The notes under the pieces: model-generated
Told to the model about the DNA's origin: nothing
Databases searched by the model: none
What the model saw: the letters and a program-made list of their open reading frames with translations, nothing else
Shown: piece after piece, positions 3,697 to 49,976 of the stretch
How positions within the stretch are numbered: the stretch's first letter is position 1
How the letters are laid out: each line of letters begins with the position of its first letter
Translations under genes and position numbers: made by a program
Origin: an uncultured Ruminococcus sp.
GTDB lineage: Bacteria > Bacillota > Clostridia > Oscillospirales > CAG-272
Direction of reading: 5' to 3'
Assembly: GCA_964621165.1 (NCBI GenBank)
Contig: CAZULC010000003.1
Location: 30,633 to 94,632, forward strand
Length of the DNA stretch: 64,000 nucleotides

Positions 3697-4109
3697 TTTT
3701 GTATTCCTCCGATAAAAATTGATTCACGTGAATCGCTCATCTGTTGTAACAGCCGCACATCATTTTTCACGCGATATGTAGTTTTAATAGAATCCGGCGC
3801 GCCGCTTGCTTCTGTTTTTAGCATAGCATAAAAAAATCGAAAAAGCAATAAAGCGTTAATTGAATTTTCAAAAAAATTTAAATTCAAGCGTCTCTTGAAA
3901 AATGTTGCCGTTTTGTGAACGAGGATACCGGATGAAAACCCAACTGTAAATAACTGGAAAATTGCGTCTCGTTCCAGACTGTACGGCTGCTGCCCGTAAA
4001 ATTGAACCTGAAATTCAAAATTCAAGCGTCGCTTGCAGTAAAAAGAGGCAACATTCCGGCGCATGAGCATATACTGAAATGAAGCTCTAATGGAACAGGA
4101 GGCTAACCA

Positions 4110-6115: not shown

Positions 6116-6140
6116 AGCTATATAATAAGGATGGTAACTT

Positions 6141-6659
6141 ATGCTCATAAACATAACCGACCCAAAAGTCCGCGCCCGCCGGGTTCAGACAATGCTCCGT
6201 ACGCTGTCTTTTGCGTATGACGAGCCTCACCTAAGAGCCAACGTCACCGGTAACTTCGATGAGCGAACAGAATCGGCGGTCAGATTCTTTCAGGAGAAAA
6301 ACAAAATCCCCGTTACAGGAGTGGTTGATCTCGCAACATGGAACGAGCTTGTCCGTCAGTACGATTATCAGATGGAACTGCAGCAGGGAATCGCACTGAA
6401 CCCCATCGGAACTGATTACGACTATAAAACGTCCCCCGGCGAGAGAAGTGACACAGTATGCATCCTGCAAATCATGCTCAACGCACTTAGCCGGGACTAC
6501 GGCATGGAACACATCCCCCTGTCCGGAATTTACGGAAGACAGACTGTCGAAGCAGTGAAGCTCTTTCAGGAGAAGAACAGACTGCCGGTCACAGGGGTCG
6601 CGGACGTCACAACATGGCAGAGACTTGCCGAGGAGTACAGCCGACAGATTTCACAGTAA
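6141..6659 (+). CDS. peptidoglycan-binding (2 x PG_binding_1) protein
   Basis: 172 aa. Two copies of the ...ESAVRFFQEKNKIPVTGVVDLATWNEL / VEAVKLFQEKNRLPVTGVADVTTWQRL motif. Confidence 0.75.
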   Translation: MLINITDPKVRARRVQTMLRTLSFAYDEPHLRANVTGNFDERTESAVRFFQEKNKIPVTGVVDLATWNELVRQYDYQMELQQGIALNPIGTDYDYKTSPGERSDTVCILQIMLNALSRDYGMEHIPLSGIYGRQTVEAVKLFQEKNRLPVTGVADVTTWQRLAEEYSRQISQ

Positions 6660-6666
6660 GACAAAA

Positions 6667-6708
6667 CCGCACGGCAGAGCATAACCCGGAACCGTGCGGA
6701 ATTTTTGT
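6667..6708 (+). terminator. rho-independent terminator of the sleC cluster
   Basis: CCGCACGG (6667-6674) / CCGTGCGG (6692-6699), an 8-bp stem followed by AATTTTTG. Confidence 0.75.
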
Positions 6709-6758
6709 TTAAACCAAACTGTAGCTAATGTAAAACAGTATCTGGCGATAGTCAAATG

Positions 6759-8348: not shown

Positions 8349-8349
8349 T

Positions 8350-8913
8350 TTAATCCTCCATTGTTAAGGCGTTTTTGAGCTTTTTTATGGCTCTGTTGTA
8401 TTTTGACAGCACCGTCGAGAGGGGAAGCGACATATGCTCAGCTATCTCCCGATGCTTGAATCCGGAAACAGCATGCAGCATGACTATTTCCCGTTCGTCG
8501 TCTTTCAGAATTTTCATGGCTCCCATGACGGCTGCCCGTTCGTCGTATGAGAGTCCATCGTGCGAGGCGATGTATTCGCTCCAGTCATCAATCTGCTCGT
8601 GATCCGCCCGGCTGTTGGCTCTCAGCTTTGACAGACATAAATTTTTGGTGATGGTGATGATCCATGCCATTGGTTTGCCCGACGAACGGTAAGCCCCGGC
8701 ATGAATGGCAATTTTTATGTAGCTGTCGTGCATCACATCCTCAGCGTCGGCGATATTCTGCAGAATGGACAGAGCATAAGAATAAACCTGCGTCTTTGTT
8801 TCTTCATACAATTTTTCGAGAGCGTCAGTGTTTTTCTCTGCAATTCTGTAAATCAGAGAATCGAGATCGGTTTCTTTCTCTTTTTCACGGTGTGCGGTGA
8901 CGGAAAACATCAT
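8350..8913 (-). CDS. ECF-type RNA polymerase sigma-70 family factor
   Basis: Region 2 (VMHDSYIKI..., WIITITKNLCLSKLR) and region 4 (REIAEHMSLPLSTVLSKYNRAIKKL). I place the start at the ATGATG preceded by GGGGGGAAG rather than the ORF-track start at 8952. Confidence 0.85.
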   Translation of the reverse strand: MMFSVTAHREKEKETDLDSLIYRIAEKNTDALEKLYEETKTQVYSYALSILQNIADAEDVMHDSYIKIAIHAGAYRSSGKPMAWIITITKNLCLSKLRANSRADHEQIDDWSEYIASHDGLSYDERAAVMGAMKILKDDEREIVMLHAVSGFKHREIAEHMSLPLSTVLSKYNRAIKKLKNALTMED

Positions 8914-9089
8914 CTTCCCCCCTTTCACTATATTAACGCCGCAGAACTCCATTTTATCGCATTATTTCAAAATTTTTTTAAATTTCTGAATTCCAAAAAA
9001 AACTATTGCAATTCATGGACGAAAATGGTATAATTTATCTGTAAAAATATATTAAATGGTAAAAATCAAAGTAAAAAGAATGAATCAAA

Positions 9090-9869
9090 ATGAGTAATAT
9101 TAACGTATTTACATACAATCTCAGAATGGACAACCGGGGAGACGGAATCAACGCTTTCTCCTCGCGGAAGGATTATATCAAAAAGACCTTTCCAAAGTAC
9201 AATGCCGACGTCATAGGCTTTCAGGAGGTTCTCCCTCACATGAGACAGTGGCTGATAGATAACTTCACCGACTACGAAATCTGCGGAGTTGGCAGGGGAG
9301 CGAACCTTGACGACGAGAGCAACGTTGTGGCGTACAGAAAGGACAAATTCGACCTTGTATCATTGGAAACCTTCTGGCTTTCTGACACACCGCGCCGTCC
9401 CGGAACAAGATTCTCCACCGACCAAAGCCCATGCCCGAGAATCTGCACCTGCACAACCCTCTACTCAAGGGAAGCCAAAAAGGTGTTCCGCCACTACAAT
9501 ACCCATCTCGACCACGAAGGAGCCTTCGCTCAGGCACAGGGAATATCCCTGATTCTCGGCAGGATCGCTTCGGACTACGACTCATGGGCGCTCCCTGTAA
9601 TCCTCACCGGAGACTTCAACGTAACGCCGGACAGCGTTGTAATAAAGTCAGTCTCGAACTTCTCAGGTTGCGGGGAAAAGCTCATTGACGTGACGTCGGG
9701 CATCACCGGAACCTTCCACGGCTACAAGCCTGAAAAACGCCTGACTAAAATCGACTATATCTTCACAAACCTGCCTTGCGACAAGTCTAAGACCCATGTC
9801 GCCGACGACTGCGAAAACGGAGTCTACCTCTCCGACCATTATCCCGTAGGAGCCGCGGTGGAGATATAA
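9090..9869 (+). CDS. endonuclease/exonuclease/phosphatase (EEP) family protein
   Basis: 259 aa: VFTYNLRMDN..., GFQEV, TGDFNVTPDS, LSDHYPV, the characteristic EEP motifs. Confidence 0.8.
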   Translation: MSNINVFTYNLRMDNRGDGINAFSSRKDYIKKTFPKYNADVIGFQEVLPHMRQWLIDNFTDYEICGVGRGANLDDESNVVAYRKDKFDLVSLETFWLSDTPRRPGTRFSTDQSPCPRICTCTTLYSREAKKVFRHYNTHLDHEGAFAQAQGISLILGRIASDYDSWALPVILTGDFNVTPDSVVIKSVSNFSGCGEKLIDVTSGITGTFHGYKPEKRLTKIDYIFTNLPCDKSKTHVADDCENGVYLSDHYPVGAAVEI

Positions 9870-24526: not shown

Positions 24527-24687
24527 AAAACTCCCGCCTTTGTGAAAAAAATATGCATATTAACAGCATTTTCAGCGGTAGTATAACATGATTTTACATT
24601 TTTGTCAATGTTTTTCTGTTAATTTTCCCCTGATTTGAATTTAAATATTTTTTATAAAAATTTTTCCTGCGGATTTCGCCGAAACCG

Positions 24688-24736
24688 TTGACAATCGTCT
24701 TCGGATATGCTATAATAAAACCATAGACAATTGTCT
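24688..24736 (+). promoter_or_regulatory. sigma-70 promoter plus palindromic BlaI/CopY-type operator
   Basis: TTGACA (24688-24693), 17 nt, TATAAT (24711-24716). Perfect palindrome AGACAATTGTCT at 24725-24736 (ACAnnTGT core). A half-related GACAATCGTC overlaps the -35. Confidence 0.7.
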
Positions 24737-24764
24737 TTAAAATTCACACAAAAAGAGGTTCAAT

Positions 24765-25148
24765 ATGAAAACAATAGAACGCCTGCCAGATGCGGAGCTT
24801 GAAGTTATGCTGATTCTGTGGCACAATCAAACGCCAATGACCGCTGGAGACATAACAAAACTTCTCGCGGATACACACAGCTGGAAAAACGCAACGGTCC
24901 ATGTGCTGCTCGATCGGCTTGAAGAACGCGGATTCGTTTGCTGTGACAAAACCGGTTTCCGGCATCTGTTTGCGCCTGCCATATCGGAAGAAGACTACCG
25001 GCGGGGCGAGGAGCGGACTCTGATGAAGCGGTTTTTCGGCGGGTCTGCCAAGAACATGATTGCTTCATTGCTGAACACGGACGGTTTATCCGATGACGAC
25101 CTCGATGAACTGTCAGCAATGCTGAAACGTCGCAAAGGAGGAAACTGA
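24765..25148 (+). CDS. BlaI/MecI/CopY family transcriptional repressor
   Basis: 127 aa: LPDAELEVMLILWHNQTPMTAGDITKLL... winged helix. Its stop overlaps the start of the M56 gene (TGATG). Confidence 0.85.
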   Translation: MKTIERLPDAELEVMLILWHNQTPMTAGDITKLLADTHSWKNATVHVLLDRLEERGFVCCDKTGFRHLFAPAISEEDYRRGEERTLMKRFFGGSAKNMIASLLNTDGLSDDDLDELSAMLKRRKGGN

Positions 25149-28100
25149 TGGCAATTCGCGATTTTTTCATCGGCATTCTTGAATTGAACATCGGAATGTC
25201 GCTTCTGATTCTGCTCATGTTGGCACTGTTGAAGCTGATTGGCGGAAAATTTACGGCAAGATGCCGCTACATTTTGTGGACGCTCGTAATAATCCGGCTT
25301 GCCCTGCCATTTGGCTTCGGAATTCCTGCCATTATTGAGCTTCCAATTGGGGTGGAAACCCAGTCTCAGACGCCGGATGAACAGCAGCCTGTACAATACC
25401 CGCCGGATTACGCTCCCACATTTTCCGCATCTTCTGCTGTTCCCGTAACGACCGGCAAGCCGCTGCAGCTTCAGGAACCAGTAATGATTCCGGAGGTCCC
25501 CGAGACTGACCCGACGACTTCCGGACAAAATCAATCCATGACTTTGGAAAAAGCGGTAACATACTTGTCGTACCTGTATCTCACTGCGGCGGCGGTATAT
25601 CTTCTGTGGATTTTTCCTTCCTATTTATTATATACCTTTAAAATCACACGATGGGCAAAAGAGCCAGACGAAAGGACCCGGGCGGTTTATGATTCCGTTT
25701 GCGTCAATCAAAAAATCAGGCATGCACCGCGGCTTCTTATATCTTCTGATGTGAACAGCCCCATTGCCTTCGGACTTGTGAAAAGAAAAATCGTCCTGCC
25801 GGATATATTTCTCACGAATGAGGGGCTTGCGGGCACTTTGTCCCATGAACTGACTCACTGTAGGCGTGGAGATCTGTGGATCAAGGCTTTCTCGCTTCTT
25901 GCGCGGGCGTTCAACTGGTTCAATCCACTGGTTCACTGGGCCGCCATGCGTTGTGAAATGGAAATGGAACTGTCCTGCGACGAAGCTGTTCTTGCTGGGT
26001 GCGGAGAGGACGTCCGTGCGGCTTATGGTGATGTGATGCTCGACATAATACGTCAGTGCAGGCGCAAGGGCGGTGTGCTGACGACTCATTTCAATCCCAA
26101 AAAACGTGCGGTGAAGGCCAGATTTATAAATATAATGTACGGTTCGGGCAAGCGGCGGGGACTGTGGCTCATTGGGGCGTGCGTTGTACTGTGCGTGACA
26201 GCAGGAGCTGTTGTGGCGTGCAAAACTGTCAAACCGGATGAAAAACCTGACGCGGAAGCAGTTGACATGCCCGAAACCGATTCCGGCGAGAATCCAGAGG
26301 AAAACTCCGACGAGCTTGATTTGCTTGTCAGCAAAATTTACGAGCTCTCTCTCTCGCCCATCATGAAATGCTTTGCCACCGGATGCGGAAATGTGGAATA
26401 CGACATCAGCAGCTCGCAGTATACCGAAGACAACGAATACTATATAGTTACGGACCCATGGTTCGCTGAAGCCGGCGTCGACTCGGTGGAGTCATTGAGA
26501 AACTATCTCCTCGGCTATTTTTCACCTGAATATACCGACCGGTTGCTCGATTCCTCCGTCACCTTCCGGGATATAAACGGGAAGCTGTGTATTCATTTGT
26601 ATGACGGCGGTAACTCAGCCGTTTATGATTTCCCCGAATTTTCCGCGGAACACATAGATGACAGCAGAATCAGGCTGACCTGTTTATCAATCTGTAATAT
26701 GCCCCTCGTTGAGCCGGAGCCGTATCTGATGGAGTTTGAATTCGTTCAGACGGATGGCGGTTGGGTTATTGATGAAGCTCCGTCTTTGCTCGATTATTTA
26801 TGGATACGGTTCGGCGTGGAAAATGAGCTGACCGCCTCGCTTGTCGAAAAGATAAGTCAAGCCGCAGAGTCGCCTGTACTGAACTGCTTTGCCGTCGGTT
26901 GTCAGGCAGTCGGGCGCAGCGTTGAGAGTTCCGGCGTTCCTGATTACTATATGATCAATGATCAATGGTTCGAAGAAAACGGAATCAACTCAGTAAAGGC
27001 GGTGGAGGACTACCTGCTCACCAGCTTCACACCCGATTGTGTGGATAGACTGTTCTCGGAGAACCCAAGCCTTTTCAATGATATTGACGGACGCCTCTGC
27101 ATATCCGACTACGTGTCAGAAAATTCGGCTGTATATGAATTCCCAGACATTACGGCTTCATATACCTCAGACGACAAAATCTGTCTGACCTGCTACGTCA
27201 CACCGGGCGCGTCCTTCGAACATCCCGATCCATACAAGTTGTATTTTTACTTTGTCAAACAGGACGGCGAATGGCTGATTGATTACACGCCTTCGGTCAA
27301 GGATCTCGTAAGACTGCGCTTCAGTGAGAATATTTTGTGGGAATATAACGAGCTGTACGGAGAATTTCTCGCCACAGCTTTCGCGCCCTATACAAAGCTC
27401 CTCAGCGCGTCGGAATACCTTGACCTCGACTCAAACGGCGTACCAGAGCTGATCCTGCAGGATTTGGCTTATGGTGCATGCGAGATTTACACCATAGAAA
27501 ACGGAGAAGTCCGCGCCTTTTACAGTGGGGACAGCATTTTCACCCATTACTCCGACGAGCGAAAACCGCTGGCTCCACCGTCCGAAAACGCTAAAGACTT
27601 GATGTTTTACGGCGCCACAACGTTAATGTCCTCCGACATCCAGCCCACATTCCTACCCGCCGAGGAAAAGTCCACGGGGAGAAAAGGGTACATGCTCTGC
27701 TCCGTCTGGGGCAATGATATGACGTGTAACTGGGAATACTATTTCTTCACACAGGGAAGTGACGGCTTGCTGACGGTTGAACTTCTGGAAATATACCGCG
27801 CTGAGGCGGTGAACTCCAACACATCAAACGGCTGGGAATTCTACAGCGGACTTAATATGCTCTCGGGCAGTCAGTTTATGGCTGAGATAACCGAACTGTG
27901 GCGCAGCTTTGCCGACGAATACGGTGTGAGCTTCACGCAGGAGAACACAATGTGTCCGCTGACCCATCTGACTGAAAAGACTCCGCCAATCCACCTGCTG
28001 CTCGATATTCTTGAGTCCCTTGACGTGGATGAGCCAATGGTTCGTATCGCGAAAACAATACCGTCAACGCAAATGTCCATAAGTTCGGCCAATGGCTGGG

Positions 28101-28378
28101 GATTTGATGAAGCAAAGGAACTTGCAGGTCAGCTGCGTGAATTCAGTTATAAGCAGTCAGAGCAGTCAGAGGAGCCCGAAGACGCGCAGATTGCCGTAAT
28201 GTCGTCGACGGAACAGGATTTCTCGCTGTACTTCCACGAAAACTCCGACGTAGTGGAGATGAACCTTGACGGTGAGACATACGTCTTTGAAGCCGCACAG
28301 ATGACCGAAGAAACAGGATCAATCTTTGAAGCGGTGACAGCGTGGTTTGACGCAGCAGTTGAAAACGGGAAAAACTAA
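25148..28378 (+). CDS. BlaR1-like M56 metallopeptidase signal transducer with large non-PBP extracellular region
   Basis: 1076 aa with HELTHCRRGD (HExxH) in the M56 domain and 4 TM. The extracellular part has two ~150-aa internal repeats (residues ~395-545 and ~560-715) and no SxxK/PBP motifs. Confidence 0.8.
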   Translation: MAIRDFFIGILELNIGMSLLILLMLALLKLIGGKFTARCRYILWTLVIIRLALPFGFGIPAIIELPIGVETQSQTPDEQQPVQYPPDYAPTFSASSAVPVTTGKPLQLQEPVMIPEVPETDPTTSGQNQSMTLEKAVTYLSYLYLTAAAVYLLWIFPSYLLYTFKITRWAKEPDERTRAVYDSVCVNQKIRHAPRLLISSDVNSPIAFGLVKRKIVLPDIFLTNEGLAGTLSHELTHCRRGDLWIKAFSLLARAFNWFNPLVHWAAMRCEMEMELSCDEAVLAGCGEDVRAAYGDVMLDIIRQCRRKGGVLTTHFNPKKRAVKARFINIMYGSGKRRGLWLIGACVVLCVTAGAVVACKTVKPDEKPDAEAVDMPETDSGENPEENSDELDLLVSKIYELSLSPIMKCFATGCGNVEYDISSSQYTEDNEYYIVTDPWFAEAGVDSVESLRNYLLGYFSPEYTDRLLDSSVTFRDINGKLCIHLYDGGNSAVYDFPEFSAEHIDDSRIRLTCLSICNMPLVEPEPYLMEFEFVQTDGGWVIDEAPSLLDYLWIRFGVENELTASLVEKISQAAESPVLNCFAVGCQAVGRSVESSGVPDYYMINDQWFEENGINSVKAVEDYLLTSFTPDCVDRLFSENPSLFNDIDGRLCISDYVSENSAVYEFPDITASYTSDDKICLTCYVTPGASFEHPDPYKLYFYFVKQDGEWLIDYTPSVKDLVRLRFSENILWEYNELYGEFLATAFAPYTKLLSASEYLDLDSNGVPELILQDLAYGACEIYTIENGEVRAFYSGDSIFTHYSDERKPLAPPSENAKDLMFYGATTLMSSDIQPTFLPAEEKSTGRKGYMLCSVWGNDMTCNWEYYFFTQGSDGLLTVELLEIYRAEAVNSNTSNGWEFYSGLNMLSGSQFMAEITELWRSFADEYGVSFTQENTMCPLTHLTEKTPPIHLLLDILESLDVDEPMVRIAKTIPSTQMSISSANGWGFDEAKELAGQLREFSYKQSEQSEEPEDAQIAVMSSTEQDFSLYFHENSDVVEMNLDGETYVFEAAQMTEETGSIFEAVTAWFDAAVENGKN

Positions 28379-28562
28379 GCCCACAAACGATGCACGTCAA
28401 ACATTTCTACAGATTCAAAAAACTCTGCCCGGAAAGCGTTCGGTCTTCCACAAAATGGCAGATAAACTCAACCGTATGGAAAATCAACATCAAAAGTAAC
28501 GCTATATTCCACAAAACACAAGATAAAAATTGATGTAAATTCGTGCAAAAAAATAAAAATAA

Positions 28563-28591
28563 TTGACATATTATCGAAATCATGGTATGAT
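28563..28591 (+). promoter_or_regulatory. consensus sigma-70 promoter
   Basis: TTGACA (28563-28568), 17 nt, TATGAT (28586-28591). Confidence 0.7.
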
Positions 28592-28633
28592 TATTTCGGC
28601 AGACAAAATTTAACTGCTGAAAGGAGTTATACC

Positions 28634-28702
28634 ATGACTGTTTTTAAGTATCGTATCGCACCCGCGGCCTCACTGATTATCACCTTAATTGACGATTCAT
28701 AA
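28634..28702 (+). CDS. candidate small ORF (22 aa: MTVFKYRIAPAASLIITLIDDS)
   Basis: AAAGGAG RBS 6-7 nt upstream of the ATG and ~40 nt downstream of the consensus promoter. Stop lies 31 nt before the TTG start of the first ABC gene. Below the ORF-track size cut-off. Confidence 0.35.
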   Translation: MTVFKYRIAPAASLIITLIDDS

Positions 28703-28733
28703 TACCAAAATTTAATCAAAGAAGGTGAAATAA

Positions 28734-30561
28734 TTGTTCAAGCATAAGAAAAATCCCGATACCATAATGTTCACGGAGTCTTTGCCGCTGTTCGCCGCGT
28801 CAGTCAGACGGGTTTGGCGGATGGACAGGAAGTACATCCTTTTCTCCGACTTCGTCTACCTCCTCGGCACGGTCCCGCCCCTTCTGACCGCATACATCAC
28901 TGCGGTTTTCAACAAACGTTTAATCGCAGGCTAGCAGGCTTACCCGTCGTATTTCTGCGCGTTCTACCCACTCATCATAGCTTTCGCTGTATCTGTGCTG
29001 GAATTCGTTTTTTTCATGGTATGGCAGTGGGTCGGAAACCGCACATATGACCGGATTACTTCGATTCTTATGTGGGATTCGGTGAAAAAAGCGTCAAAAA
29101 TAGATTACGCCTCCTATGACAGTCCTGAATTCTACGACCGTATACAAAAAGGCTGGTCACTGGACGGGCAGCGGTTTGTCGCCAGCGCACAGAGCATTTT
29201 CAACACGCTGTCCTGTATTGCCGGGATGGCTGCGTATGCCGCGATTTTAGCCTATGTCGACTGGAAGCTGTTTTTGGTTCTGATCCTGCTGCGGATAGCA
29301 TTCACTCCGATTGACGAGAAAACCGGCAGGATGATCTACCGTTTCAACAACAAATTAGCCGAGCAGCGGAGGAAGGAGTCGTATTACCGCAGCTTTTTCG
29401 ACAACAAGGGAATGGCAGCTGAGGGCAAAATATTCGACCTCTACAGCTACGCACGGGAAAACTACATATCGGCGAACAAAAAGATATATAAGCAAACCTT
29501 TATATTTGAGCTTAAAATCAAGGGAATAAAGCTCCTGTCCGAGGTAATGTGGAATCTGCCAATCGCGGCGGTGTACATCTACCTGTCAGTCTGCGCGTAC
29601 AACGGCACGGTCAGCCTTGGGGACATGACAATGTGCATAGCGATGTATGTCGGCTTCATCAACCAGCTCTACAACACCATTGCCAACATAACGGGATTCC
29701 GAAACGACGCGGAAAGAGCGCGGTTTTCACGGGAATTTCTCGCTCCCCCCACAACAATCTGCGCCGATGGCGACGAATCAAAGCCAAAGGTTGACTCAGG
29801 TTTTGCCGGACATACGGTGGAATTTTGCGGCGTGTCCTTCGCATATCTCGGAATCGATAAGAAGGTTCTCGACAACGTCAGCTTTAAGGTTGGCTCCAAC
29901 AAAACCGTATCCGTAATCGGCGCAAACGGCGCAGGAAAGACTACACTTGTACATCTACTCATGCGGCTGTACGACCCCACCGAAGGCGTGATTCTGCTTG
30001 ACGGCAGGGATTTGCGCGAATACTCGGCGTCGAGCCTGTACGAAATTTTCGGCGTGCTGTTTCAGGACTACTGTGACTACGCCGTGAGCGCCTGGGAGTT
30101 CGTAACTCTGTCCACTGTCGAGCTGGATGTGAGTCGATTCAGCGACGCATTAAAGTCCTCTACATCATACAAATTCATAAATTCACTCAAAAACGGCATA
30201 AATACCGCCCCTGTCAAGTAGGTTCGACCCCGACGGAATCGAGCTGTCCGGCGGTTAGAAGCATCGGGTGGCACTTGCGCGGGCATATTACAAGGACGCA
30301 CCTGTCATAGTCCTCGACGAGCCGTCAGCCTCCATTGACCCGCAATCCGAGACGGAGATTCTCGCGTCCGTGAAAATGCTCCACGGCAAGCGGAATATCT
30401 GGCTCATTTCCCACCGGCTCAGCACCTGCGTCATTTCCTATTTGGTTCTGCTGCTGAAGGACGGCAGGCTTATCGGAAACGGTTCGCACGACGAGCTGAT
30501 GGAAAACAACGACGAGTACCGCCGTATGTTCAGACTCCAAGCCGACAGATATGAGGTGTAA
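28734..30561 (+). pseudogene. ABC exporter, fused permease/ATPase (pair A, gene 1), disrupted
   Basis: TTG start behind AAGGTG. In-frame TAG at 28932-28934, a +1 frameshift near 30200-30221 (GINT|PLSSRFDPDG), and an in-frame TAG at 30256-30258 exactly at the Q of the LSGGQ signature (IELSGG*KHRVALARAYYKDAPVIVLDEPSASIDP). Walker A GANGAGKTT is present. Confidence 0.8.
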
Positions 30562-30563
30562 TT

Positions 30564-32351
30564 ATGATTAATAAAAAAGCAATATCCGCTATATCCTGAG
30601 CCTAGCATTCGACAAAAGTCTGTGGTTCATCCTGATTATCCCCGTCTGCTCCATCATCGCGGGTCAGAGAGCTGTGGCGTCCAGTTGGCTCAGCGCACAG
30701 ATTTTTAATAAGCTCCAGCTTATAGTTACGGAAAATCACGACCCGGCTCTGCTGTATGACGCCATAATTTTCGGAATCCTGCTGTCGTTCACCACAATAG
30801 TGGTATGGCTCCTTAATACCGTATCGGGTCTCACAGAAAACCACTGGCGGGAGCACGTCAACTTATAAGTGCAGGAAAAATTCCTCGAGCGGGACTATAA
30901 AAGTGACATCGCGGACTTCGACAACCCTGATTTTCAGAACCGCCGCTCCGTCACCAAGAGAGTTGACCCCATAGGCGAGATCAAAACGGTCATCGACTGC
31001 CTAAGCGGGATTTTCGCAGCCCTGTCATTCACCGTGATTCTGTGGAATTACAGCCCCATCATGTTCATCGCCGCCGTTTTTGTGAAGCTGCCCACGTATT
31101 TTCACAAAAATTCACTCATGAAGGAGCGCCGGCAGTTCCGTATTTCCTCGGATGTACTGTGGCGTGAGAAGAACTATTATCGCGGCATTCCTGTATCCCG
31201 TTAAGAAGCGAAGGGATTCAAAATCTTTGACATGAAATCCTACGTCTGCGACAAATACGACGACGCGGTTGAGCGGTATTTCAAGGCGTACAGAAGCCAG
31301 TTCGTCAAAAATAAAACGAACATCGGAATCGACGACCACTACTCCGAGCTGATTACGGTTGTCGTTGAAATTATCGTGGGAACCTCGGTTTTCACGGGGA
31401 AAATGATGGTAGGCGACTTCACCCTCGTCGTTGCCGCGTTCAATAACTTGTCAGGCTGCGTTTGGAAATCTCGTCGGATTCGCGGCACAGCTGAATGATA
31501 TGCGGGATCAAAACAATATGCTTCGTGACTACCTTGAAGACAAGGCAATTTTCGACAGAGGCGAAGAATCCGGCATGGAAGTAAAGGAAGGCGCACACAC
31601 GATTGAAGTAAGAAACCTGTGCTTCACCTACCCCGGAGGTGACAAGCCTATTTTCTCGGACCTAAGCCTGACCATCTCCGCCGGCGAGACATGTGCTCTT
31701 GTCGGACTGAACGGAAGCGGAAAGAGTACGTTTGTCAACATGCTCCTGCGACTGTACAAGCCTGACAGCTGGGAAATCCTCCTTGACGGCGTGAATATCG
31801 AAAAATACGACGTCCATTCCTACTATAAAGCGATCGCATGCGTGTTCCAGAGCACCACAAAATACGCCATGCCCATCCGTGACTACATCGCGTCGGGAAA
31901 GGACTGCGACATAGACAGAGCAAAAGCGGCGGTCAACGAGGTTAGACTGGGCGATTGGTGCAGGGAACTGCCTCACGGATTGGACACCATGCTGACCTGC
32001 CCGTTTACGTCTGAGTCCGATTCAGTGGAGCCGTCAATTGGACAATGGCAGAAGCTTTCGATTGCCCGTGCAATATACAAGGACTCGTCAATTATGATTC
32101 TAGACGAGCTATCAGCCAGCCTCGACGTTGACTCGGAAAACGTGATTTTTAGCTATATAGAGCGTCTGTTCGCTAAGAAAACGGCACTGCTGATCTCCCA
32201 CAGACTGTCAAATGTGGTCGGATGCGATAAAATCTTTCTGATCATCGGCGGTCGATTGGTAGAAGAGGGAAGTCACCGCGAGCTTATGGAAAAACGCAGA
32301 CGTTACGCCGAGTTGTTCATGTCACAGGCGGAGATGTACAAAGCCGGATAA
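30564..32351 (+). pseudogene. ABC exporter, fused permease/ATPase (pair A, gene 2), disrupted
   Basis: ATG 30564. Frameshift in the A6 run 30573-30578, in-frame TAA at 30866-30868 and at 31202-31204, and a frameshift near 31450. The NBD (GLNGSGKST ... MILDELSASLD) is otherwise readable. Confidence 0.8.
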
Positions 32352-32539: not shown

Positions 32540-33241
32540 ATGAACCTGAAAATAGCAATCTGCGACGACGACGCAACCCAGCGGACATATCTACAAGACA
32601 TCCTCATCCCGTGGGCAAAGCGAAACCGCCATCTTATTGAAATCAAACAATACGCAAATGCAAAACAATTCTTCTTTGACTATGATGAAGAAAAGGACTT
32701 CGACATACTTCTTCTCGACGTGGAAATGCCGGAGGTGAACGGAATTGAGGTCGCGAAACGGGTGAGAGAGAAGAATTCCACCGTCCAGATTATCTTCATC
32801 ACCGGGTATTACGAGTATTTCAGCGACGGATTTGACGTCTCAGCTCTCCATTACCTCATCAAACCCGTGGATAAAGCTAAGCTATGCCCCGTGCTGGACA
32901 AAGCTGCGGACAATCTACTCTGCCGTCAGCGTTCGGTTCTTGTCTCCACCCCGGATGAGGACATAAAAATCTCTCTCGCCGACATCTGCTACGTGAATTC
33001 GGAAAATGTCTACGTCAACGTCCACACGGTTCACGGAAATCATCGTACACGAATGACCCTCGCAAAATTCGCCGAGCAGCTTGATGGAACCTTTTTCAAA
33101 ATCCACCGCTCATACATAGTCGGGTTGAAATACGTTAAAAAAATCTCACGCAGCGAGGTCACAATGTTAAACGGCGACGTACTGCCAATCAGCCGGGGAC
33201 TGTACGACGAGATTCACGCCGCGGTAATCAAGTATCTTTGA
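32540..33241 (+). CDS. LytTR/AlgR family response regulator
   Basis: REC domain (IAICDDD...LLLDVEMPEVNGIEV) plus LytTR DNA-binding domain (FFKIHRSYIVGLKYVKKI). Confidence 0.9.
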   Translation: MNLKIAICDDDATQRTYLQDILIPWAKRNRHLIEIKQYANAKQFFFDYDEEKDFDILLLDVEMPEVNGIEVAKRVREKNSTVQIIFITGYYEYFSDGFDVSALHYLIKPVDKAKLCPVLDKAADNLLCRQRSVLVSTPDEDIKISLADICYVNSENVYVNVHTVHGNHRTRMTLAKFAEQLDGTFFKIHRSYIVGLKYVKKISRSEVTMLNGDVLPISRGLYDEIHAAVIKYL

Positions 33242-33250
33242 GGTGCATGC

Positions 33251-33895
33251 ATGATTTTAGACAAGCTAATATCAAAACGGGTCGCCGCCTTTGAACAGGA
33301 ACTTCTACAGAAGTATTACGCCGAGGTCGAGAACATGTACGACAAAATGCGCGGCTGGCGTCACGACTACCGGCACCACATCCAGACCATGAAGGTCCAC
33401 ATGGCAAACGGCGAGATTGAGGAAATCGGGCGTTATCTCGACATGCTCGACGACGACCTGACCAACGTGGAAACCGTAATCAAAACCGGCAACCGCATGG
33501 CTGACGCAATCCTCAACAGCAAGCTCTCCCTCGCCGCCCAAAAGGACATAAAGGTCAAAGCGGAGGCGAAAATCCCCGTGTCCCTTTCCGTTTCCGAGAT
33601 TGATTTGTGCGTGGTAATCGGCAACCTGCTCGACAACGCCATCGAAGCCTGCATGGAGCTTCCGCCAAAGGAGCGGCTGATTCGGATTTACATGGAGATG
33701 AAGGGAAACTATCTCTACATTGCTCTGACCAACACCGCCGCCAGAAAGAAGAAAAGCAGCTTCCGCACGACAAAGGGCGACGGTCACGGCTTCGGCATAA
33801 GCCGGGTGGACGCGGTGGTGAAGAAGTACGGCGGCTACGTCACAAGAGCGTCGGAGGACGGGGCTTTTTCCACCGAGGTCCTGCTTCCGATGTAA
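33251..33895 (+). CDS. AgrC-type (HPK10) histidine kinase core without transmembrane or sensor domain
   Basis: 214 aa. H-box WRHDYRHHIQTM, N-box IGNLLDNAIEA, G-box GDGHGFGISRV. No hydrophobic segment. Starts 10 nt after the RR stop, behind a GAGGTG RBS. Confidence 0.8.
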   Translation: MILDKLISKRVAAFEQELLQKYYAEVENMYDKMRGWRHDYRHHIQTMKVHMANGEIEEIGRYLDMLDDDLTNVETVIKTGNRMADAILNSKLSLAAQKDIKVKAEAKIPVSLSVSEIDLCVVIGNLLDNAIEACMELPPKERLIRIYMEMKGNYLYIALTNTAARKKKSSFRTTKGDGHGFGISRVDAVVKKYGGYVTRASEDGAFSTEVLLPM

Positions 33896-33921
33896 AATAA
33901 ACAAAAAAATGCAATTGACAA

Positions 33922-33978
33922 CAAATTTCAGACATTTGGCATCAAATTGCACTTTTTCATTTCCGGAAATGTTATAAT
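33922..33978 (+). promoter_or_regulatory. candidate LytTR operator (direct repeats) plus extended -10 promoter
   Basis: CAAATTTCA (33922-33930) and CAAATTGCA (33943-33951) match 8/9 and start 21 bp apart (9-bp repeat plus 12-bp spacer). TGtTATAAT at 33970-33978 lies 21 nt downstream. Confidence 0.5.
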
Positions 33979-34073
33979 GTAGTCAAGAGGTGCGGCGTGA
34001 AGATATAGTTGATCACAGTTTATTTAGCTGTCAGCCGACCGGAATTCTTTCATATCTATTTGTGGAGGAGAAA

Positions 34074-35894
34074 ATGAAAACCAAAAAAGAAAAACGAAAG
34101 TATTCACGCATTGACTCAATCCTGTTTGGAATGAAATGGATGTGGAAATTCGACAAAAGTTTTATATTCTATGTATTTTCCAACATTCCGTTAATAATAA
34201 TCATTCCCCTCGCGTCTTCCTATTTCACGAAATACCTTATAAACGCGCTGGAACGCGGGGCGGCATTCAAGGAACTCGCGCTGATTGTAGCCGGCTTCAT
34301 CGGGGGAATCATGCTTCTCAATTTTTTAGACATGCTTTTATCCACGCGCCTCGGTGCAAAAACTTATTATCCGACTATGATTTGTCAGACAGAAATGAAC
34401 GCGATTGTTAACAAAGAAAAGGACTATGAAAACACCGAAAAGCAGGATTTCAAGAAAGCATATCAATATTCTTACAATGACGCTTGCAGTGGGAACTGCG
34501 CATTGGAGACTGTCTGGAAGGATATTTCCAATTTTTTGGTCTCCCTCCTCGGAATCGGCGTGTACGGCTCACTGCTGGGACTGCTCAACCCCATACTTTT
34601 CGCTGTCGTTGTTGCTGTGTCAATTGCGTCGTACTACACAACCCGCTGGGAGAGCCTGTATTATGAAAAGCACAAGCATATGTACGAAAAGGAACAGCGC
34701 AAGCTCAGCTATCTCAAGGGACTATCGGAAAACTTTTCCGTCGCAAAGGATATAAAGCTCTACGGCATGGAGTCGTGGCTAGACAAAATGGTGCGGGATT
34801 ACCAGATCTACGTCCTCATGTGGGAGAACAGATGCAGTCTTCGGGGCGTTTTCGCTTCCATTTTTTCGGGAATCATGAGCTTTGTGCAGAACAGCGTGGC
34901 TTATATAGTACTCATCGGAACATTGTTTTCCGGAGGTATGTCAGTGGGCGACTTCGTGTTCTACTTCGGTATAGTCGGCAGCATTGCCGGATTTCTCACC
35001 GGAATCATCACAGGCATCGCAAGACTTAACAACCGCGCCGAGAAAATCGACTACTACCGGGATTTCTTCGCATATTCCAACGTAATGAACTACGGAAAAG
35101 GCTGCGAGCTGCCTGAAAGTGCGGTCAAAATCGAGCTTCGCGACGTGTGGTACCGTTACGACGGAGCCGAGGACTACACCATCAGGGGAATCAACCTGAC
35201 TATCGACTCTGGTGAGAGCCTCGCACTTGTGGGCATGAACGGCGCGGGTAAAACCACGCTAATCAAGCTCATCTGCGGCTTCTATCTTCCTACAAAGGGT
35301 GAAATCCTCGTAAACGGCAGGAAAATCGAGGAATATAACATAAACGAATACTATTCCATCATATCCGCCGTGTTCCAGAAAATCAACCCCGTCGCCTTTT
35401 CCATATTTAATTTCGTGGCGAGCTCTGACCTGACCCGGGAAAACGCCCGTGAGGAAGCAATAGACGCCATGAAGAAAGCCGGAATCTGGGAGAAAATCGA
35501 GAGTCTCGAGTACGGAATCGACACCCACCTGATGAAGGGTATATACGACGACGGCGTGGATTTGTCCGGCGGGGAAATGCAGAAGCTGGTTCTGGCGCGG
35601 GCAATCTACAAAAACGGTCACATCCTCATCCTCGACGAACCCACCGCAGCCCTCGACCCAATCGCGGAAAACAACCTGTACCTGCAATACCGCGCACTGA
35701 CAAAGGAAAAAACCTCAATCTACATCTCACACCGCTTCGCCTCCACAAAATTCTGCGATAGGATTGTACTGCTTGAGGACGGCAGAATCACGGAAAGTGG
35801 CACACATGACGAGCTGATGAATCTGAACGGACGGTACGCGTATATGTTCGGCGTTCAGGCAAAATATTACAGGGAGGGCGAAAAAAATGCTTAA
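34074..35894 (+). CDS. ABC exporter, fused permease/ATPase (pair B, gene 1), intact
   Basis: Start ATG 34074 behind GGAGGAG. 6 TM region, Walker A GMNGAGKTT, LSGGEMQKLVLARA signature, ILILDEPTAALD Walker B. Confidence 0.85.
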   Translation: MKTKKEKRKYSRIDSILFGMKWMWKFDKSFIFYVFSNIPLIIIIPLASSYFTKYLINALERGAAFKELALIVAGFIGGIMLLNFLDMLLSTRLGAKTYYPTMICQTEMNAIVNKEKDYENTEKQDFKKAYQYSYNDACSGNCALETVWKDISNFLVSLLGIGVYGSLLGLLNPILFAVVVAVSIASYYTTRWESLYYEKHKHMYEKEQRKLSYLKGLSENFSVAKDIKLYGMESWLDKMVRDYQIYVLMWENRCSLRGVFASIFSGIMSFVQNSVAYIVLIGTLFSGGMSVGDFVFYFGIVGSIAGFLTGIITGIARLNNRAEKIDYYRDFFAYSNVMNYGKGCELPESAVKIELRDVWYRYDGAEDYTIRGINLTIDSGESLALVGMNGAGKTTLIKLICGFYLPTKGEILVNGRKIEEYNINEYYSIISAVFQKINPVAFSIFNFVASSDLTRENAREEAIDAMKKAGIWEKIESLEYGIDTHLMKGIYDDGVDLSGGEMQKLVLARAIYKNGHILILDEPTAALDPIAENNLYLQYRALTKEKTSIYISHRFASTKFCDRIVLLEDGRITESGTHDELMNLNGRYAYMFGVQAKYYREGEKNA

Positions 35895-37722
35895 GGACAA
35901 CATTACACTGCGCGGACTGAAAATGTACTCCGGATATAACAAAAGATATTTCCCGCTGAAATTCATTCAGACCGTGTTCGGGAGCATCTCCCCCTACTTC
36001 AATCTGTGGATGTCCGCCCAAATCGTCACCTCGCTGTATGAAGGGAAGGAGAGGGAATACATCTTTACCCTTGTGACGATAACCCTCCTCGGTAACCTGT
36101 TTGTACATATTATGGGAGCGATTCTCGGCAGGTACGTGGGCATTGAATTCAAGAAGCTGTGCAACAATGAAAGCGCCGCCTTCAGCCATAAAACCGTGTC
36201 CCTCGATTACGATAAATTAGAGGACCCCGCTGTCCGCAAGCTGCGCAGAAAAATCATAGAAAACGCGTGTATCAACAACTACGGCGTCAAATCACTGCGC
36301 ATTAATATTGAAGGACTGTTCAACCGCTTTATAAATATTTTTTTCTCGGCGGTCCTCTTTATCGAGATGTTTTCCGAGATAGCCAAAGCGGGTTTTCAGC
36401 CCCTGTCCGTCATTCTTCTGATAGGGCTGGTCGGATTTATGGTTCTTTCAATTATATACGACAACTTTATACAAAAGCAAAAAGCGCAAACGAACAATCG
36501 GCTTGGAGACCTTCTCCTGCGCGAAAATGAGCTTGACAGAGGTCATCAGCTTGACGGAATGGACTGCCGCATATATAAGCAGCAGGATATATTGTCGCGC
36601 ATTGAAGCCAAAATAAACGAAGACCACTTTAAGATTTTTACAGCGGTAATGAAACAGAATATTAGATTCAGCTTACCGAGTTCTATTTTATATAAGGTGT
36701 CGGAGGTGTGCGCGTACCTGATAATCTGCTTATACTGCGGCATGGGTATTTTCCCAATCGGCGGCGTGATAAAGTATGTAGGGTACCTGAAACGAGTGAC
36801 CAATGATATTCAAAAAACCTTCTACCATTTTTCCGAGCTGAAAAACAACGAGCCATTCCTCAAGACCTATCTGGAATACTTTGAAATTCCAAACAGCATG
36901 TACCAAGGCTCACTGGCGGTGGAAAAACGCAGCGACAAAAAGTTCGACATAGAGTTTCGCGACGTCAGCTTCAAGTACTCCGGCTCGGACGAGTACGCGC
37001 TGAAGCATATCAATCTCAGCCTGAAGGTAGGGGAACGTCTGGCAGTGGTGGGCATGAACGGCAGCGGAAAAACTACATTTATTAAGCTTCTCTGCCGCCT
37101 GTACGACCCCACGGACGGGGAAATTCTGATGAACGACTTCAACATCCGCAAATATAACTACCGCGAGTATCTTGACATATTCTCGGTGGTGTTCCAGGAA
37201 TACACGCTTTTAGCGCTCCCCCTCGGAAACAACATCGCCTGCGATAAATCGTGGGACGAGGCAAAGGCTGAGCGGCTGATTGACGAGGTGGGCTTCGGCG
37301 GACGGTATTCGGAAATGCCGAAAAAGCTGGAAACTCCCTTGTACAAGAATTTCGACGAGGACGGCGTGAACATTTCCGGCGGTGAAGCCCAGAAAATAGC
37401 CCTCGCCCGTGCGCTGTACCGTGACTCGCCGTTTATAATCCTCGATGAACCCACGGCGGCACTGGACCCCATAGCGGAGGTGGAAATTTACTCAAAATTC
37501 GACAACATTGTCGGGGACAAGACCGCGATTTACATAAGCCATAGGTTGTCGTCATGCCGGTTCTGCGACAAAATAGCGGTGTTCGACCACGGCGAGATTG
37601 TACAGATTGGCACCCATGACGAGCTGCTCTCCGACGAAAAAGGGAAGTACTATGAGCTATGGAACGCTCAGGCGCAGTATTACACAAACCAAAAGAAAAG
37701 CGCTGTGAGTGAGATAAGCTGA
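35887..37722 (+). CDS. ABC exporter, fused permease/ATPase (pair B, gene 2), intact
   Basis: Overlaps the upstream gene by 8 nt. GMNGSGKTT, ISGGEAQKIALARA, FIILDEPTAALD. Confidence 0.85.
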   Translation: MLKDNITLRGLKMYSGYNKRYFPLKFIQTVFGSISPYFNLWMSAQIVTSLYEGKEREYIFTLVTITLLGNLFVHIMGAILGRYVGIEFKKLCNNESAAFSHKTVSLDYDKLEDPAVRKLRRKIIENACINNYGVKSLRINIEGLFNRFINIFFSAVLFIEMFSEIAKAGFQPLSVILLIGLVGFMVLSIIYDNFIQKQKAQTNNRLGDLLLRENELDRGHQLDGMDCRIYKQQDILSRIEAKINEDHFKIFTAVMKQNIRFSLPSSILYKVSEVCAYLIICLYCGMGIFPIGGVIKYVGYLKRVTNDIQKTFYHFSELKNNEPFLKTYLEYFEIPNSMYQGSLAVEKRSDKKFDIEFRDVSFKYSGSDEYALKHINLSLKVGERLAVVGMNGSGKTTFIKLLCRLYDPTDGEILMNDFNIRKYNYREYLDIFSVVFQEYTLLALPLGNNIACDKSWDEAKAERLIDEVGFGGRYSEMPKKLETPLYKNFDEDGVNISGGEAQKIALARALYRDSPFIILDEPTAALDPIAEVEIYSKFDNIVGDKTAIYISHRLSSCRFCDKIAVFDHGEIVQIGTHDELLSDEKGKYYELWNAQAQYYTNQKKSAVSEIS

Positions 37723-46097: not shown

Positions 46098-46250
46098 ATG
46101 AATAATTACATCAAAAAAATACGACATATAACATCAAGTAAATCCCAAGCAAAGGCTTGTTTCAAGTCTCAGCCGTGGTTATTACTTGATTTTTTTGTTG
46201 CGTTTATTAATTCATCCTCCCTGAAAATATATTTTATGGAGGTTTTGTAA
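46098..46250 (+). pseudogene. 50-codon 5' fragment resembling an ABC exporter N-terminus
   Basis: GGGAGG RBS. MNNYIKKIRHITSSKSQAKACFKSQPWLLLDFFVAFIN parallels the N-terminus of the next ORF (MNKIKRHITNVKKS...SSQPVLAVLYIIF). Ends at TAA 46248-46250. Confidence 0.5.
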
Positions 46251-46253
46251 TTA

Positions 46254-48071
46254 TTGAATAAGATTAAGCGGCACATTACCAACGTGAAAAAATCCTGCAC
46301 AGCGGAATGGTATGTGGTAAAGCTGCTGTTTTCATCCCAGCCGGTATTAGCAGTGTTGTACATCATTTTCCACACGCTGAGCTATCCTGTTTCTCTCGTC
46401 AATATCTTCCTTTGGAAGGAGGTGCTGGACGCCCTGACTGAAGGGAAAAACACGGATTTGAAGCGCATAATATTTTTAGTATGTCTGTACCTGCTTCTGA
46501 CGATTTTTATATCCTGCTTGGGCAAAATCAATTTTGGTATAATCCGCCCAGCCTTGTATATGAAATCCCAAAAGCAGCTGGACGAGCGCATTATGAAGAA
46601 AATGTCAGAGCTGGATTTATCCTTTTTTGACGAACCCGAAAATCAGGATATGCTCCAGGTTGCTCAGAACAGCAAGCAGCAGGTCAGCGACGCCATGACA
46701 TATTTTGTCCGCGAGTCTGTCAATACTGTTACATTTGTTATAGGGCTGGACTGTTTTCTCTCAATTTAGACTGTAGTCGGATATGCGTATTTGCTGACAA
46801 ATCTACCGAGTGTCCTGATCAACCATAACAATAATGTGAAAATGGATCGTTTATCAATCAGAAGTGTTTCGGAAAATCGGGAAAAGGACTATTATCGGAG
46901 TCTGCTGACAACGAGCAGCTACGCAAAGGATTTACGGCTGTATAATCTGCGCACATACTGGCTGGAAAAATACCAAAACATATGGAATAAGCTTAGAGCT
47001 GAGCGTGCGAAAATTTTCACCCGCGGCGTAATGCTCTCGGGCATATCCCTCTTGTTGTCAGCCGCGGGAAGTATTCTTATTGTAGTATATTCCTCATATT
47101 CGGTGCTGAAAGGCGGAATGACAATCGGCACATTAACTATGTTTTTGTCCTTCGCGGAAAAATCCAAAGTATGTTTTTGGCATTATGTCATTCCTTTCCC
47201 AATCATATCAAGGTCACGATTCCTCATATTCTTCGTTTTATGGAATTTTTGTCCCTTCCTTTTCAGAATATCAAGGGAGAGGAGCCAATCGAACAGAAAC
47301 CCCCGTCAATTGAGTTTCAGAATGTTTCCTTCCATTATCCAAATGATGAGAAGAATGTTCTGCAAAACCTGAATTTAACCATTGCTCCCGGTAAAAAAGT
47401 CCTTTTGGTAGGGCAGAACGGCTCAAGAAAGACCACAATCATGAAATTGCTGCTCAGGTTTTACCGACCGACAGAAGGTCAGATTCTGATTAACGGCAAA
47501 AATATAGAATCTTATTCGCAAAAAGAATTATATCGTGTTTTCAGCGTATGCTTCCAATAAACTGAGCAATATGCCATGACCCTGCGGGAAAATATCGCAA
47601 TATTCGACGTTGACAGGATAGATGAAACGGAATCCATAAAGTCGGCTGCCCATAAGGCTGAGGTTGACGCGATTTACAAGTCCCTTCCCGAGGGCCTTGA
47701 CGCGGACTTGACAAAGAGCTTCAAACAGTAAAGGTCATGTGCTGTCCGGCGGGCAGTGGCAGAAGATTGGGCTGTCAAGAGTGTTTTAAGTGACTCAGTC
47801 TTTATGATTTTTGACGAACCTTCATCCCTTGAATCCGGACGCTGAAAACTTCGTGTTTGAATCCATCAGGACCTTGTGTCAGAACAAAGGCGGATTGATT
47901 ATCTCCTGCAGGCTGACCGCAGTTCCTTTGGCGGACGAAATTATATTCTTGAATGATGGAAAAATCAGCGAAGCCGGAACGCACAGTGAATCAATTAAAC
48001 ATAACGGTGAATATGCTAACATGTACCGACTGCAGGCTGACAAATATAAACTGATCAAGAAGGAGGCATAA
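46254..48071 (+). pseudogene. ABC exporter, fused permease/ATPase (pair C, gene 1), heavily disrupted
   Basis: Readable pieces occur in all three frames. In-frame TAA at 47558-47560 (VCFQ*TEQYAMTLRENI), LSGGQWQKIGLSRVF in one frame then LSDSVFMIFDEPSS in another (T4 run near 47783), further shifts near 46770, 47170, 47730 and 47830. Walker A is degenerate (GQNGSRKTT). Confidence 0.75.
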
Positions 48072-48074
48072 ATC

Positions 48075-49858
48075 ATGACTGAAATAAAGAAGCAAATCAA
48101 ATACGTCATTCAGGCGACAAAGCTGATTTATATGGCGTCGGGGAAATATTACATATGGATTTTTCTCCTGAGTCTGCGCCTGTCCGTTCTGCCGTATGTA
48201 CCGATGTTTTTATGACGTTCCCTATTGAATGCTTTGACGGCGGAAAGTAAAGACAGTCATGCAGTGGTATTTTTCATAGGATGCTACTGCCTCAGTGTTT
48301 TTCTGTCGGGACTATTCAACCGTATCTATAGAATAGTTTCCTACCAATATAACGACAGAGTGGACTATTATATAGATAATCTTCTGATTGAAAAGATTGC
48401 GGGGGCGGATATTTCCTTCTTTGACAGCAGTGAAATTGCGGACAAGCTCAGGAATGCCTCCAACTATATGCGCGGCACAACAAAATCAATCGTCATGTTT
48501 ATATTCTACATAATGCAGAGCTTCCTCAGAATTGCGGTTTCCGTTTTGATTATGATAGAACTGGATTATAAAGTCCTGCCGCTCATTCTTCTGTTTAGAG
48601 TGGTTCCGATATTGACGCAGAAAAAGAACAGGGAGGAGCAGTACAATTTTAATAAAGAGCAGTTAATGAGACAGAGAAAAATGGATTACATAAAAGAACT
48701 GTTTTTCAGTGGCGCAAAATATGAGCTTCGTCTGTATGTATGAGTTTAAGGATTTTTTACTCGGAAAATATAAAAATGAATGGGATGAGTATTATTCCCA
48801 AAACAAAAAGCTGCAAATCCGACTCTGAGGGCGTGAATGTGCTTCTGTATTTATGGAAGTTGGTATCGAAGCGATTGCGATTTTCTTCTCGGTGGAAAAA
48901 ATGCTTTCGCAGACGACGACAGGAATCGGCTACGTCACCTATTTTATTTCCACTGTAAATCAAATCAAGACAAATCTGCTCGGACTTTCGAATATTTATA
49001 CGCGCTTTACCCAAGAATGTACACAGCTCGACGATATTATGGACTTCATTTCCTACACCCCGAAAACAGAGATCGGCGGCAGTATGTGTCCGAAGATGAA
49101 TTGTATCCCGAGAACCACATTAAAAAATGTGTCATTCAAATATCCGAATTTCGACGAATATGTTTTGAAAAATTGCAGCTTTACCATAAATCCCAGAGAA
49201 AAAATCGGTCTGGTTGGAAATAACGGCGCCGGAAAAAGTACGATTGTGAAATTGCTGTGCAGATTCTACGATCCGACCGAAGGAGTCATTGAAGTAAATG
49301 GAGGTGACGTCAGGGAATATGAGCTGTCAGCACTGCGGCGGCTGTATGGTGTTGTTTCAGGATTATGTGCGGTACAGCTTTTCCTTGCGGGAAAATATCG
49401 CATTGTCGGATATTGAAAAGAAGGATTGATGACCGGAAGATAAATGCCGCAGTGTCCCGCAGCCATGTGTCCGACTTTGCAGGGGAATGGGATAATGCTA
49501 TGGAAGCATCTGACCCGGCAGTTCGATAAAGAGGGCAAAGAGCTGGCCGGAGGTCAATGGCAGAGTGTTTCTTTGGCGAGAGCGTTTTTCCGTGACGCGC
49601 CGGTTGTACTGCTTGACGAACCATCCGCCGCACTTGACCCCATTGCGGAGTATGAGATTTTTGAAGATTTCGCAAGGCTGTCAAAGGATAAAAGCGCGGT
49701 TTTGATTTCCCACCGGCTGTCGAGCATTACGCTGTGTGACAGGATTTTAGTTTTGTCGGACGGACACATCATCGAGCAGGGTTCCCACGCGGAGCTGATG
49801 AAGCAGAACGGGAGAATACGCTCGACTGTTCAGCCTTCAGGCGAGCAAGTATATGTGA
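48075..49858 (+). pseudogene. ABC exporter, fused permease/ATPase (pair C, gene 2), heavily disrupted
   Basis: ATG 48075 behind AGGAGG. In-frame TGA at 48213-48215 (PMFL*RSLLNALT), frameshifts near 48740, 48840, 49370-49440 and 49815. GNNGAGKST and LLDEPSAALDP are readable. True stop inferred at 49856-49858 (YARLFSLQASKYM*). Confidence 0.75.
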
Positions 49859-49976
49859 GCTTTGGGATTACAATGTGATTGAATCAACGCCTATGTTGAA
49901 ACGCGACTGTTTCCTGTGCCGTGATATACGTCTTATGTAGAGAAAGAAATTCCCGCAGAAGCATACACGTCCCGCG

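Follow-up and report, generated by a model that had tools for sequence, protein, structure and literature searches.

Translational coupling by the unmasking of a hairpin is known from the coat and replicase genes of phage MS2 and from several bacterial operons. In ermC and cat-86, stem-loops that mask a ribosome-binding site (RBS) are under the control of a leader open reading frame (ORF), and in the bmrBCD operon of Bacillus subtilis the leader ORF BmrB controls a heterodimeric ABC exporter, BmrCD (PMC4191407). The locus considered here lies in a 64,000-nucleotide stretch of DNA from an uncultured Ruminococcus sp. (the window), in which a promoter, a Shine-Dalgarno (SD) sequence and a short ORF (designated the sORF) directly precede two genes of an ABC exporter (designated genes A and B). 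Our preferred reading, held tentatively and at somewhat less than an even chance, is that the sORF is a translated cis-acting leader of the ABC exporter operon, of the ermC/cat-86 or the translational-coupling type, that is now a relic. The coordinates of the features are given in Table 1.

Table 1. Features of the sORF locus and its surroundings (positions in the window)
Feature	Position	Strand	Basis	Remarks
BlaI-like repressor	24765-25148			upstream of the sORF
BlaR1/M56 protein	25148-28378			1076 aa, with an IseA-type endopeptidase-inhibitor domain; upstream of the sORF
Sigma-70-type promoter	28563-28591	+	promoter scan, 11 of 12 matches, upstream TG	TTGACA 28563-28568, 17-nt spacer, TGn-TATGAT 28586-28591
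SD sequence of the sORF	28620-28626	+	sequence reading	AAAGGAG, 7 nt ahead of the ATG
sORF	28634-28702	+	reading-frame translation	22 codons and TAA; encodes MTVFKYRIAPAASLIITLIDDS
Predicted hairpin, 5' arm	28675-28692	+	folding	anti-SD segment with TCACCTT, within sORF codons 14-20
Predicted hairpin, 3' arm	28716-28735	+	folding	gene A SD AAGGTGA (28722-28728) and first bases of the TTG start
Gene A	28734-30561	+	orthologue alignment	pseudogene of ABC exporter subunit A (fused permease-ATPase); TTG start
Gene B	30564-32351	+	orthologue alignment	pseudogene of ABC exporter subunit B
LytTR response regulator	32540-33241			downstream of gene B
GHKL histidine kinase	33251-33895			214 aa, soluble, H-box HDYRHH, without transmembrane or sensor domain; after the LytTR gene
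Second ABC pair (heterodimeric exporter)	ends at 37722			intact; after the GHKL kinase

Expression Signals and Coding Potential of the sORF

The initial annotation had described a TTGACA-17-TATGAT promoter, an AAAGGAG RBS and an ATG at this locus, and each is present where it had been placed; the ORF, from ATG 28634 to TAA 28700–28702, and its 22-codon translation were likewise found as given. The promoter at 28563 was the sole hit in a scan of positions 28000–29200. The window has 16 promoters that match at 11 or more of the 12 positions, as compared with 0.77 expected from Markov shuffles; 13 of them have the extended TG, and about 5% of this strong-promoter class are expected to be chance members. 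Judged from the promoter sequence, transcription would start near G28598. The SD-ATG of the sORF lies 42 nt from the −10 box, a distance that matches those of real genes behind other strong promoters; where such a promoter precedes a long gene, that gene starts at the first SD-ATG, about 30–95 nt past the −10 box. ORFs of at least 20 codons that open with AGGAG-N5-9-ATG are expected by chance about 3.4 times per 128 kb (both strands), and the probability that one falls on the right strand of the 136-nt leader is low (p ~0.004). According to the folding model, opening of the SD and AUG of the sORF in the transcript costs 8.6–9.4 kcal/mol; the site is partly paired and not especially accessible.

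The expression signals of the sORF exceed chance and look real, and ribosomes probably reach it. On their own, these signals are no evidence of a working small gene. It is nearly as likely as the preferred leader reading that the sORF is functionless, with a real promoter, a 136-nt leader that is untranslated or incidentally translated, and a frame and hairpin that arose from chance or from neutral drift once the operon was dead. The codon-usage score of the sORF (0.10 per codon) is the highest among its three frames and falls between the values for windows of real genes read in frame (0.30 ± 0.20) and out of frame (−0.21 ± 0.20), and this intermediate value is consistent with absence of function, but a near-consensus promoter and a well-spaced, strong SD-ATG at a gene-like distance are improbable together by chance.

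The encoded peptide has no cysteine and, as read from its sequence, is neither amphipathic nor cationic. Its longest unbroken hydrophobic run is 12 residues (IAPAASLIITLI), no GG, GA or GS motif is present, and no established ribosome-arrest motif was recognized when MTVFKYRIAPAASLIITLIDDS was read by eye. The searches for homologues in metagenome contigs, 102 loci (L001–L102) and plasmids found none, which also favors absence of function: a back-translated degenerate query of MTVFKYRIAPAA had 0 matches among the metagenome contigs, tblastn of the peptide against the 102 loci gave only noise, and tblastn and blastn searches of the plasmids returned nothing. The interval around the sORF is present as a single copy in the window and is absent from all of the loci that were fetched.

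Decay of the Downstream Exporter Genes

The stop codon of the sORF is 31 nt ahead of TTG 28734, as first described, and this TTG aligns with residue 1 of intact gene A orthologues. Most of the orthologues examined start with ATG, and that of locus L001 starts with GTG. Whereas the orthologues of L007 and L089 have a promoter ~45 nt upstream, gene A lacks a good one, and its transcription must therefore pass through the sORF.

The two genes had been annotated simply as ABC exporter genes. Both are pseudogenes, with seven disabling lesions in 3.6 kb, and their correction as such is the more useful outcome of this analysis in practice. Gene A is interrupted by an in-frame TAG at 28932, is frameshifted by the insertion of 1 nt at 30207, and has a second TAG at 30256 where the LSGGQ signature has its invariant Gln. 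In gene B, as compared with the orthologues, ~4 nt are deleted near 30578; TAA codons occur at 30866 and 31202, and the frame shifts near 31455. Because the remaining long genes of the window are intact, these lesions represent real decay rather than general sequence error. A present-day role of the sORF in controlling or feeding the exporters is therefore excluded. With its downstream genes inactivated, the region may also have undergone drift, and the ORF may have its present length by accident. The density of lesions is in keeping with a functionless sORF because it implies appreciable neutral drift, from which a small number of substitutions would be expected in a stretch of ~140 nt.

Decay also extends to a third ABC exporter pair in the window (46254–49878), for which the tblastn matches jump between frames and many of the ORFs are fragmentary. 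It is preceded by a near-consensus promoter at 46049, an SD sequence (GGGAGG) and a 50-aa ORF (46098–46250), which ends with TAA one codon ahead of the ABC start, TTG 46254, and is in the same frame. Relatives of this pair with 70% identity, which are fragmentary as well, begin with ATG at the point corresponding to 46254. A fragment of this locus with 99% identity is contained in a Logan assembly (P0206). The 50-aa ORF has a faint likeness to an ABC N terminus (RHIT, SQP), and BLASTP finds nothing for it. The first genes of the two decayed pairs, at 28734 and 46254, both have TTG where most relatives have ATG, and both lie behind a strong promoter and a short SD-ATG ORF. With genes A and B and this third pair all decayed, the lineage seems to be losing exporters of peptides or drugs.

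Several other features of the neighborhood were recorded. The BlaI/BlaR1-like operon is flanked by divergent near-consensus promoters at 24688 (+) and 24608 (−), in the interval 24608–24765. A direct repeat, TTCCACAAAA-N4-AGATAAA, occurs at 28446–28466 and 28507–28527, 61 nt apart and just upstream of the 28563 promoter, and nowhere else in the window; it could be a regulator-binding site. A motif common to the three promoters, ATTCGTGC, was considered as a regulator site and rejected, as it occurs at chance frequency. Downstream, the location of a sensor-less kinase beside a transporter (32540–37722) suggests sensing through the transporter. A small ORF at 33909–33977, ahead of the intact ABC pair, was considered as a paralogue of the sORF; it overlaps the operon promoter and has no SD sequence, and the two are not comparable.

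Orthologous Loci

The databases contain no close relative of the source lineage. In a search of 5.8 billion proteins, the nearest relatives of gene A beyond the window's own fragment have at most 60% identity, and the next-best match of the BlaR1-like neighbor has 53% identity over half its length. About 45 orthologue clusters with 40–60% identity comprise intact proteins of ~610 aa (604–617 for subunit A; subunit B has ~598). The genomic context was read for 11 of these clusters and for one further locus from species-representative genomes, and the survey for upstream ORFs covered loci L001, L006, L007, L088 and L089–L106. A metagenome scan with the ABC alignment, which was keyed to generic ATPase motifs, returned only unrelated ABC loci of ~30% identity.

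Most of the orthologous ABC pairs are part of a twin radical-SAM peptide (RiPP) cluster, with the order 97-aa ACP-like protein, 469-aa radical-SAM/SPASM protein, precursor, 415–420-aa radical-SAM protein, ABC-A and ABC-B. The precursor is Cys-rich, has 46–58 aa and begins with MT[IL]xELF. The best matches of the first radical-SAM enzyme are the PapB/SCIFF maturases and those of the second are AlbA/SkfB; both enzymes are below every NCBIfam cut-off, and the cluster may represent an undescribed thioether RiPP family. This arrangement is found in L001, L006, L089–92 (in L089 it spans 2428–9626), L097–99, L101 and L103–104. Solo ABC pairs are found in L007, where the pair has a promoter of its own and the leader is 45 nt in length, in L088, where the pair follows a VanZ gene, and in L093–96 and L105.

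No comparable SD-preceded small ORF was found ahead of the orthologous ABC pairs in any of the surveyed loci, which represent four genomic contexts and have at most 60% identity. The initial annotation had looked to conservation of the reading frame upstream of orthologous ABC genes as the check on the sORF; such conservation is absent from the surveyed loci, a weak test at identities of 60% or less, and intergenic DNA can no longer be aligned at the distance of these orthologues. The lack of the sORF from every orthologous locus examined is a further point on the side of its having no function. Locus L105 contains a five-codon mini-ORF (MLSDL, 3905–3925) with the SD sequence AGAGGAGG, located ~70–75 nt upstream of the solo ABC pair.

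The composition of the orthologous clusters bears on the origin of the sORF, which might be the 5' stump of a longer gene, now mostly deleted, such as a RiPP precursor, a maturase or a duplicated ABC 5' end. The locus is decaying, and the radical-SAM and precursor genes that precede most orthologous ABC pairs are missing here. AAAGGAG-N7-9-ATGAC is used by four of the five precursors examined, all of which begin with MT[IL], and the other decayed ABC locus of the window has an in-frame 50-aa ORF directly before its start. This origin is nonetheless unlikely because the sORF region shows no significant similarity, in DNA or protein, to precursors or to the ends of the radical-SAM (3') and ABC (5') genes, and because nhmmer, run with a profile of the 5' regions of precursors, has no match at the sORF.

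Each form of such a remnant was considered and rejected. (i) Duplication of the ABC promoter or 5' end was not borne out, as both the 10-mer in common (CAAAATTTAA) and the local alignments were at the level of chance or of shuffles. (ii) For a radical-SAM 3' remnant in the upstream intergenic DNA, the AAATTCGTG patch was equalled or beaten in 74 of 200 shuffles, and local DNA alignment of 28379–28733 with radical-SAM 3' ends and precursor genes was at shuffle level; when the window was searched by tblastn with the cluster proteins, no remnant of them was detected near the sORF, and no maturase at any position. (iii) For a decayed RiPP precursor, alignment of the peptides gave p values of 0.5–0.9, and the precursor profile missed the sORF; when ABC N termini were compared as well as precursors, the range was 0.4–0.9.

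The adjacency of the sORF to exporters whose orthologues serve RiPP clusters, the presence of a LytTR regulator and a kinase 3.8 kb downstream, and the size of leaderless peptides, which is similar to its 22 aa, could be taken to indicate that its product is secreted or otherwise active, for instance as a leaderless pheromone, bacteriocin or PSM-like peptide, and that it is exported by the adjacent ABC pair and is possibly tied to the LytTR system. We regard this as highly improbable. The exporters are pseudogenes, the 214-aa kinase is soluble and lacks a membrane sensor, and the peptide, besides being neither amphipathic nor cationic, is not conserved. Of the two roles that the initial annotation had drawn from the position of the sORF, that of an exported precursor is unsupported by cysteine, a double-glycine motif, similarity to the cluster precursors, a maturase or a peptidase domain (a Pfam search of the exporter fragments gave ABC_tran only, and no C39 peptidase domain), while the anatomy fits the other, a cis-acting leader in which a hairpin with codons 15–18 masks the SD sequence of gene A. 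A more specific form of the leader reading, in which the translated sORF gated, through SD unmasking, an ABC pair of the twin radical-SAM cluster family, has a very slender chance of being correct, and it is still less likely that these exporters handled a leaderless 22-aa peptide.

Folding of the Leader and Predicted Masking of the Gene A SD Sequence

The hairpin that pairs the distal codons of the sORF with the SD sequence of gene A has a predicted energy of −10.9 kcal/mol and a z score of −1.65, and 10 of 200 shuffled sequences fold equally well. It is not statistically exceptional. The cost of opening the SD sequence and start of gene A was computed by a partition-function model for different positions of the ribosome. 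In the free transcript, or with a ribosome early in the sORF, this cost is 9.7–10.2 kcal/mol; it is 6.5 kcal/mol with codon 12 in the P-site, 3.1–3.4 kcal/mol with codons 15–18 in the P-site, and 6.3 kcal/mol with a ribosome at the stop codon of the sORF. Among 39 real genes of the window used as controls, five have an SD opening cost at least equal to that of gene A, and three have a perfect upstream complement of at least 7 nt. Both the hairpin and the masking are thus within the range of ordinary genes, which is also what would be expected if the sORF were functionless.

The leader reading, which we prefer, would operate as follows. The sORF would be the first translated cistron of the transcript from the 28563 promoter. 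In the free mRNA, the RBS of gene A (AAGGUGA) and its weak TTG start would be paired with sORF codons 15–18, and a ribosome translating, pausing or terminating in the last third of the sORF would melt this pairing and expose the gene A SD sequence 31 nt downstream. In this way, translation of the exporter would be linked with the passage of ribosomes along the leader and could be tuned by it. We infer that the sORF is translated, that gene A was coupled to it and that the arrangement had regulatory value at some time; the promoter, SD sequence, ORF and hairpin are present in the DNA, and the pseudogene state of the exporter genes is real. The control would be translational coupling or a two-arm attenuation of the cat-86/ermC kind rather than transcription attenuation. 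The seven lesions later inactivated both exporter genes and would have left the leader without a working target.

No terminator-like site is found in 28000–29200, and no G+C-rich stem followed by a T-run occurs among the folds of the leader; transcription attenuation in the style of BmrB is therefore excluded. A structured RNA leader, riboswitch-like or protein-binding, with an incidental ORF would account for the predicted hairpins and for a 5' leader that at ~136 nt is long as compared with the ~45 nt of L007 and L089, but the overall fold of the leader has a z score of only −1.05, there is no terminator, and no conserved related sequence is available for covariation. An Rfam search with E values up to 10 gave a single match, to a miRNA, which was judged spurious. 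The chance that the leader is of this kind is very small.

Comparison with Known Systems

If the leader reading is true, the locus adds a further case of an ABC exporter controlled through translational coupling, a single, unconserved one that survives as a fossil ahead of dead genes. If the form of it that involves a RiPP exporter is true, leader-ORF control would extend to RiPP-type exporters in uncultured Clostridia. The sORF is of little wider importance and at best is a leftover regulatory leader.

Among systems that encode small peptides, the sORF resembles the precursors of the twin radical-SAM clusters in being a small ORF with an AAAGGAG SD sequence and a Met-Thr-hydrophobic start near an exporter of the same family. 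The cluster precursors, however, have 46–58 aa and several Cys residues and are located between two radical-SAM genes, not beside the exporter. As compared with the precursors of double-glycine bacteriocins and pheromones, the sORF has no GG-type leader and the exporters have no N-terminal C39 domain. Type I toxins similar to Fst have a transmembrane helix of ~20 residues and an antisense RNA, whereas the sORF has its 12-residue hydrophobic run, and no convergent promoter was found in 28000–29200.

Closer parallels are found among systems in which an upstream frame controls a downstream gene. As in coupling of the MS2 type, a translated upstream frame would open a structure over a downstream SD sequence, here with a stop-start gap of 31 nt; the upstream cistron is only 22 codons in length and has no evident function of its own. 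BmrB differs from the sORF in that the latter has no terminator-like site in 28000–29200 and no sequence similarity to BmrB. The two are alike in being leader ORFs on the operon promoter, directly before a heterodimeric ABC pair, in a Firmicute (PMC4191407).

The targets of the cat-86 and ermC leaders are a ribosome-protecting or drug-modifying enzyme, whereas that of the sORF is an ABC exporter; unlike those systems, the sORF is not conserved among the loci examined and its targets are pseudogenes. At the sORF, the alternative pairing of four segments seen in ermC is absent. The leaders also differ in length, with 22 codons in the sORF as compared with nine in cat-86 and 19 in ermC. With both systems the sORF shares the arrangement of a short, SD-preceded ORF directly upstream of the putatively regulated gene; a predicted stem-loop may mask the RBS of that gene, as the stem-loops of those systems do. 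The predicted structure is most like the two-arm design of cat-86, in which the 5' arm lies within the distal codons of the leader and a ribosome located there unmasks the RBS (see PMC4191407 for the mechanism).
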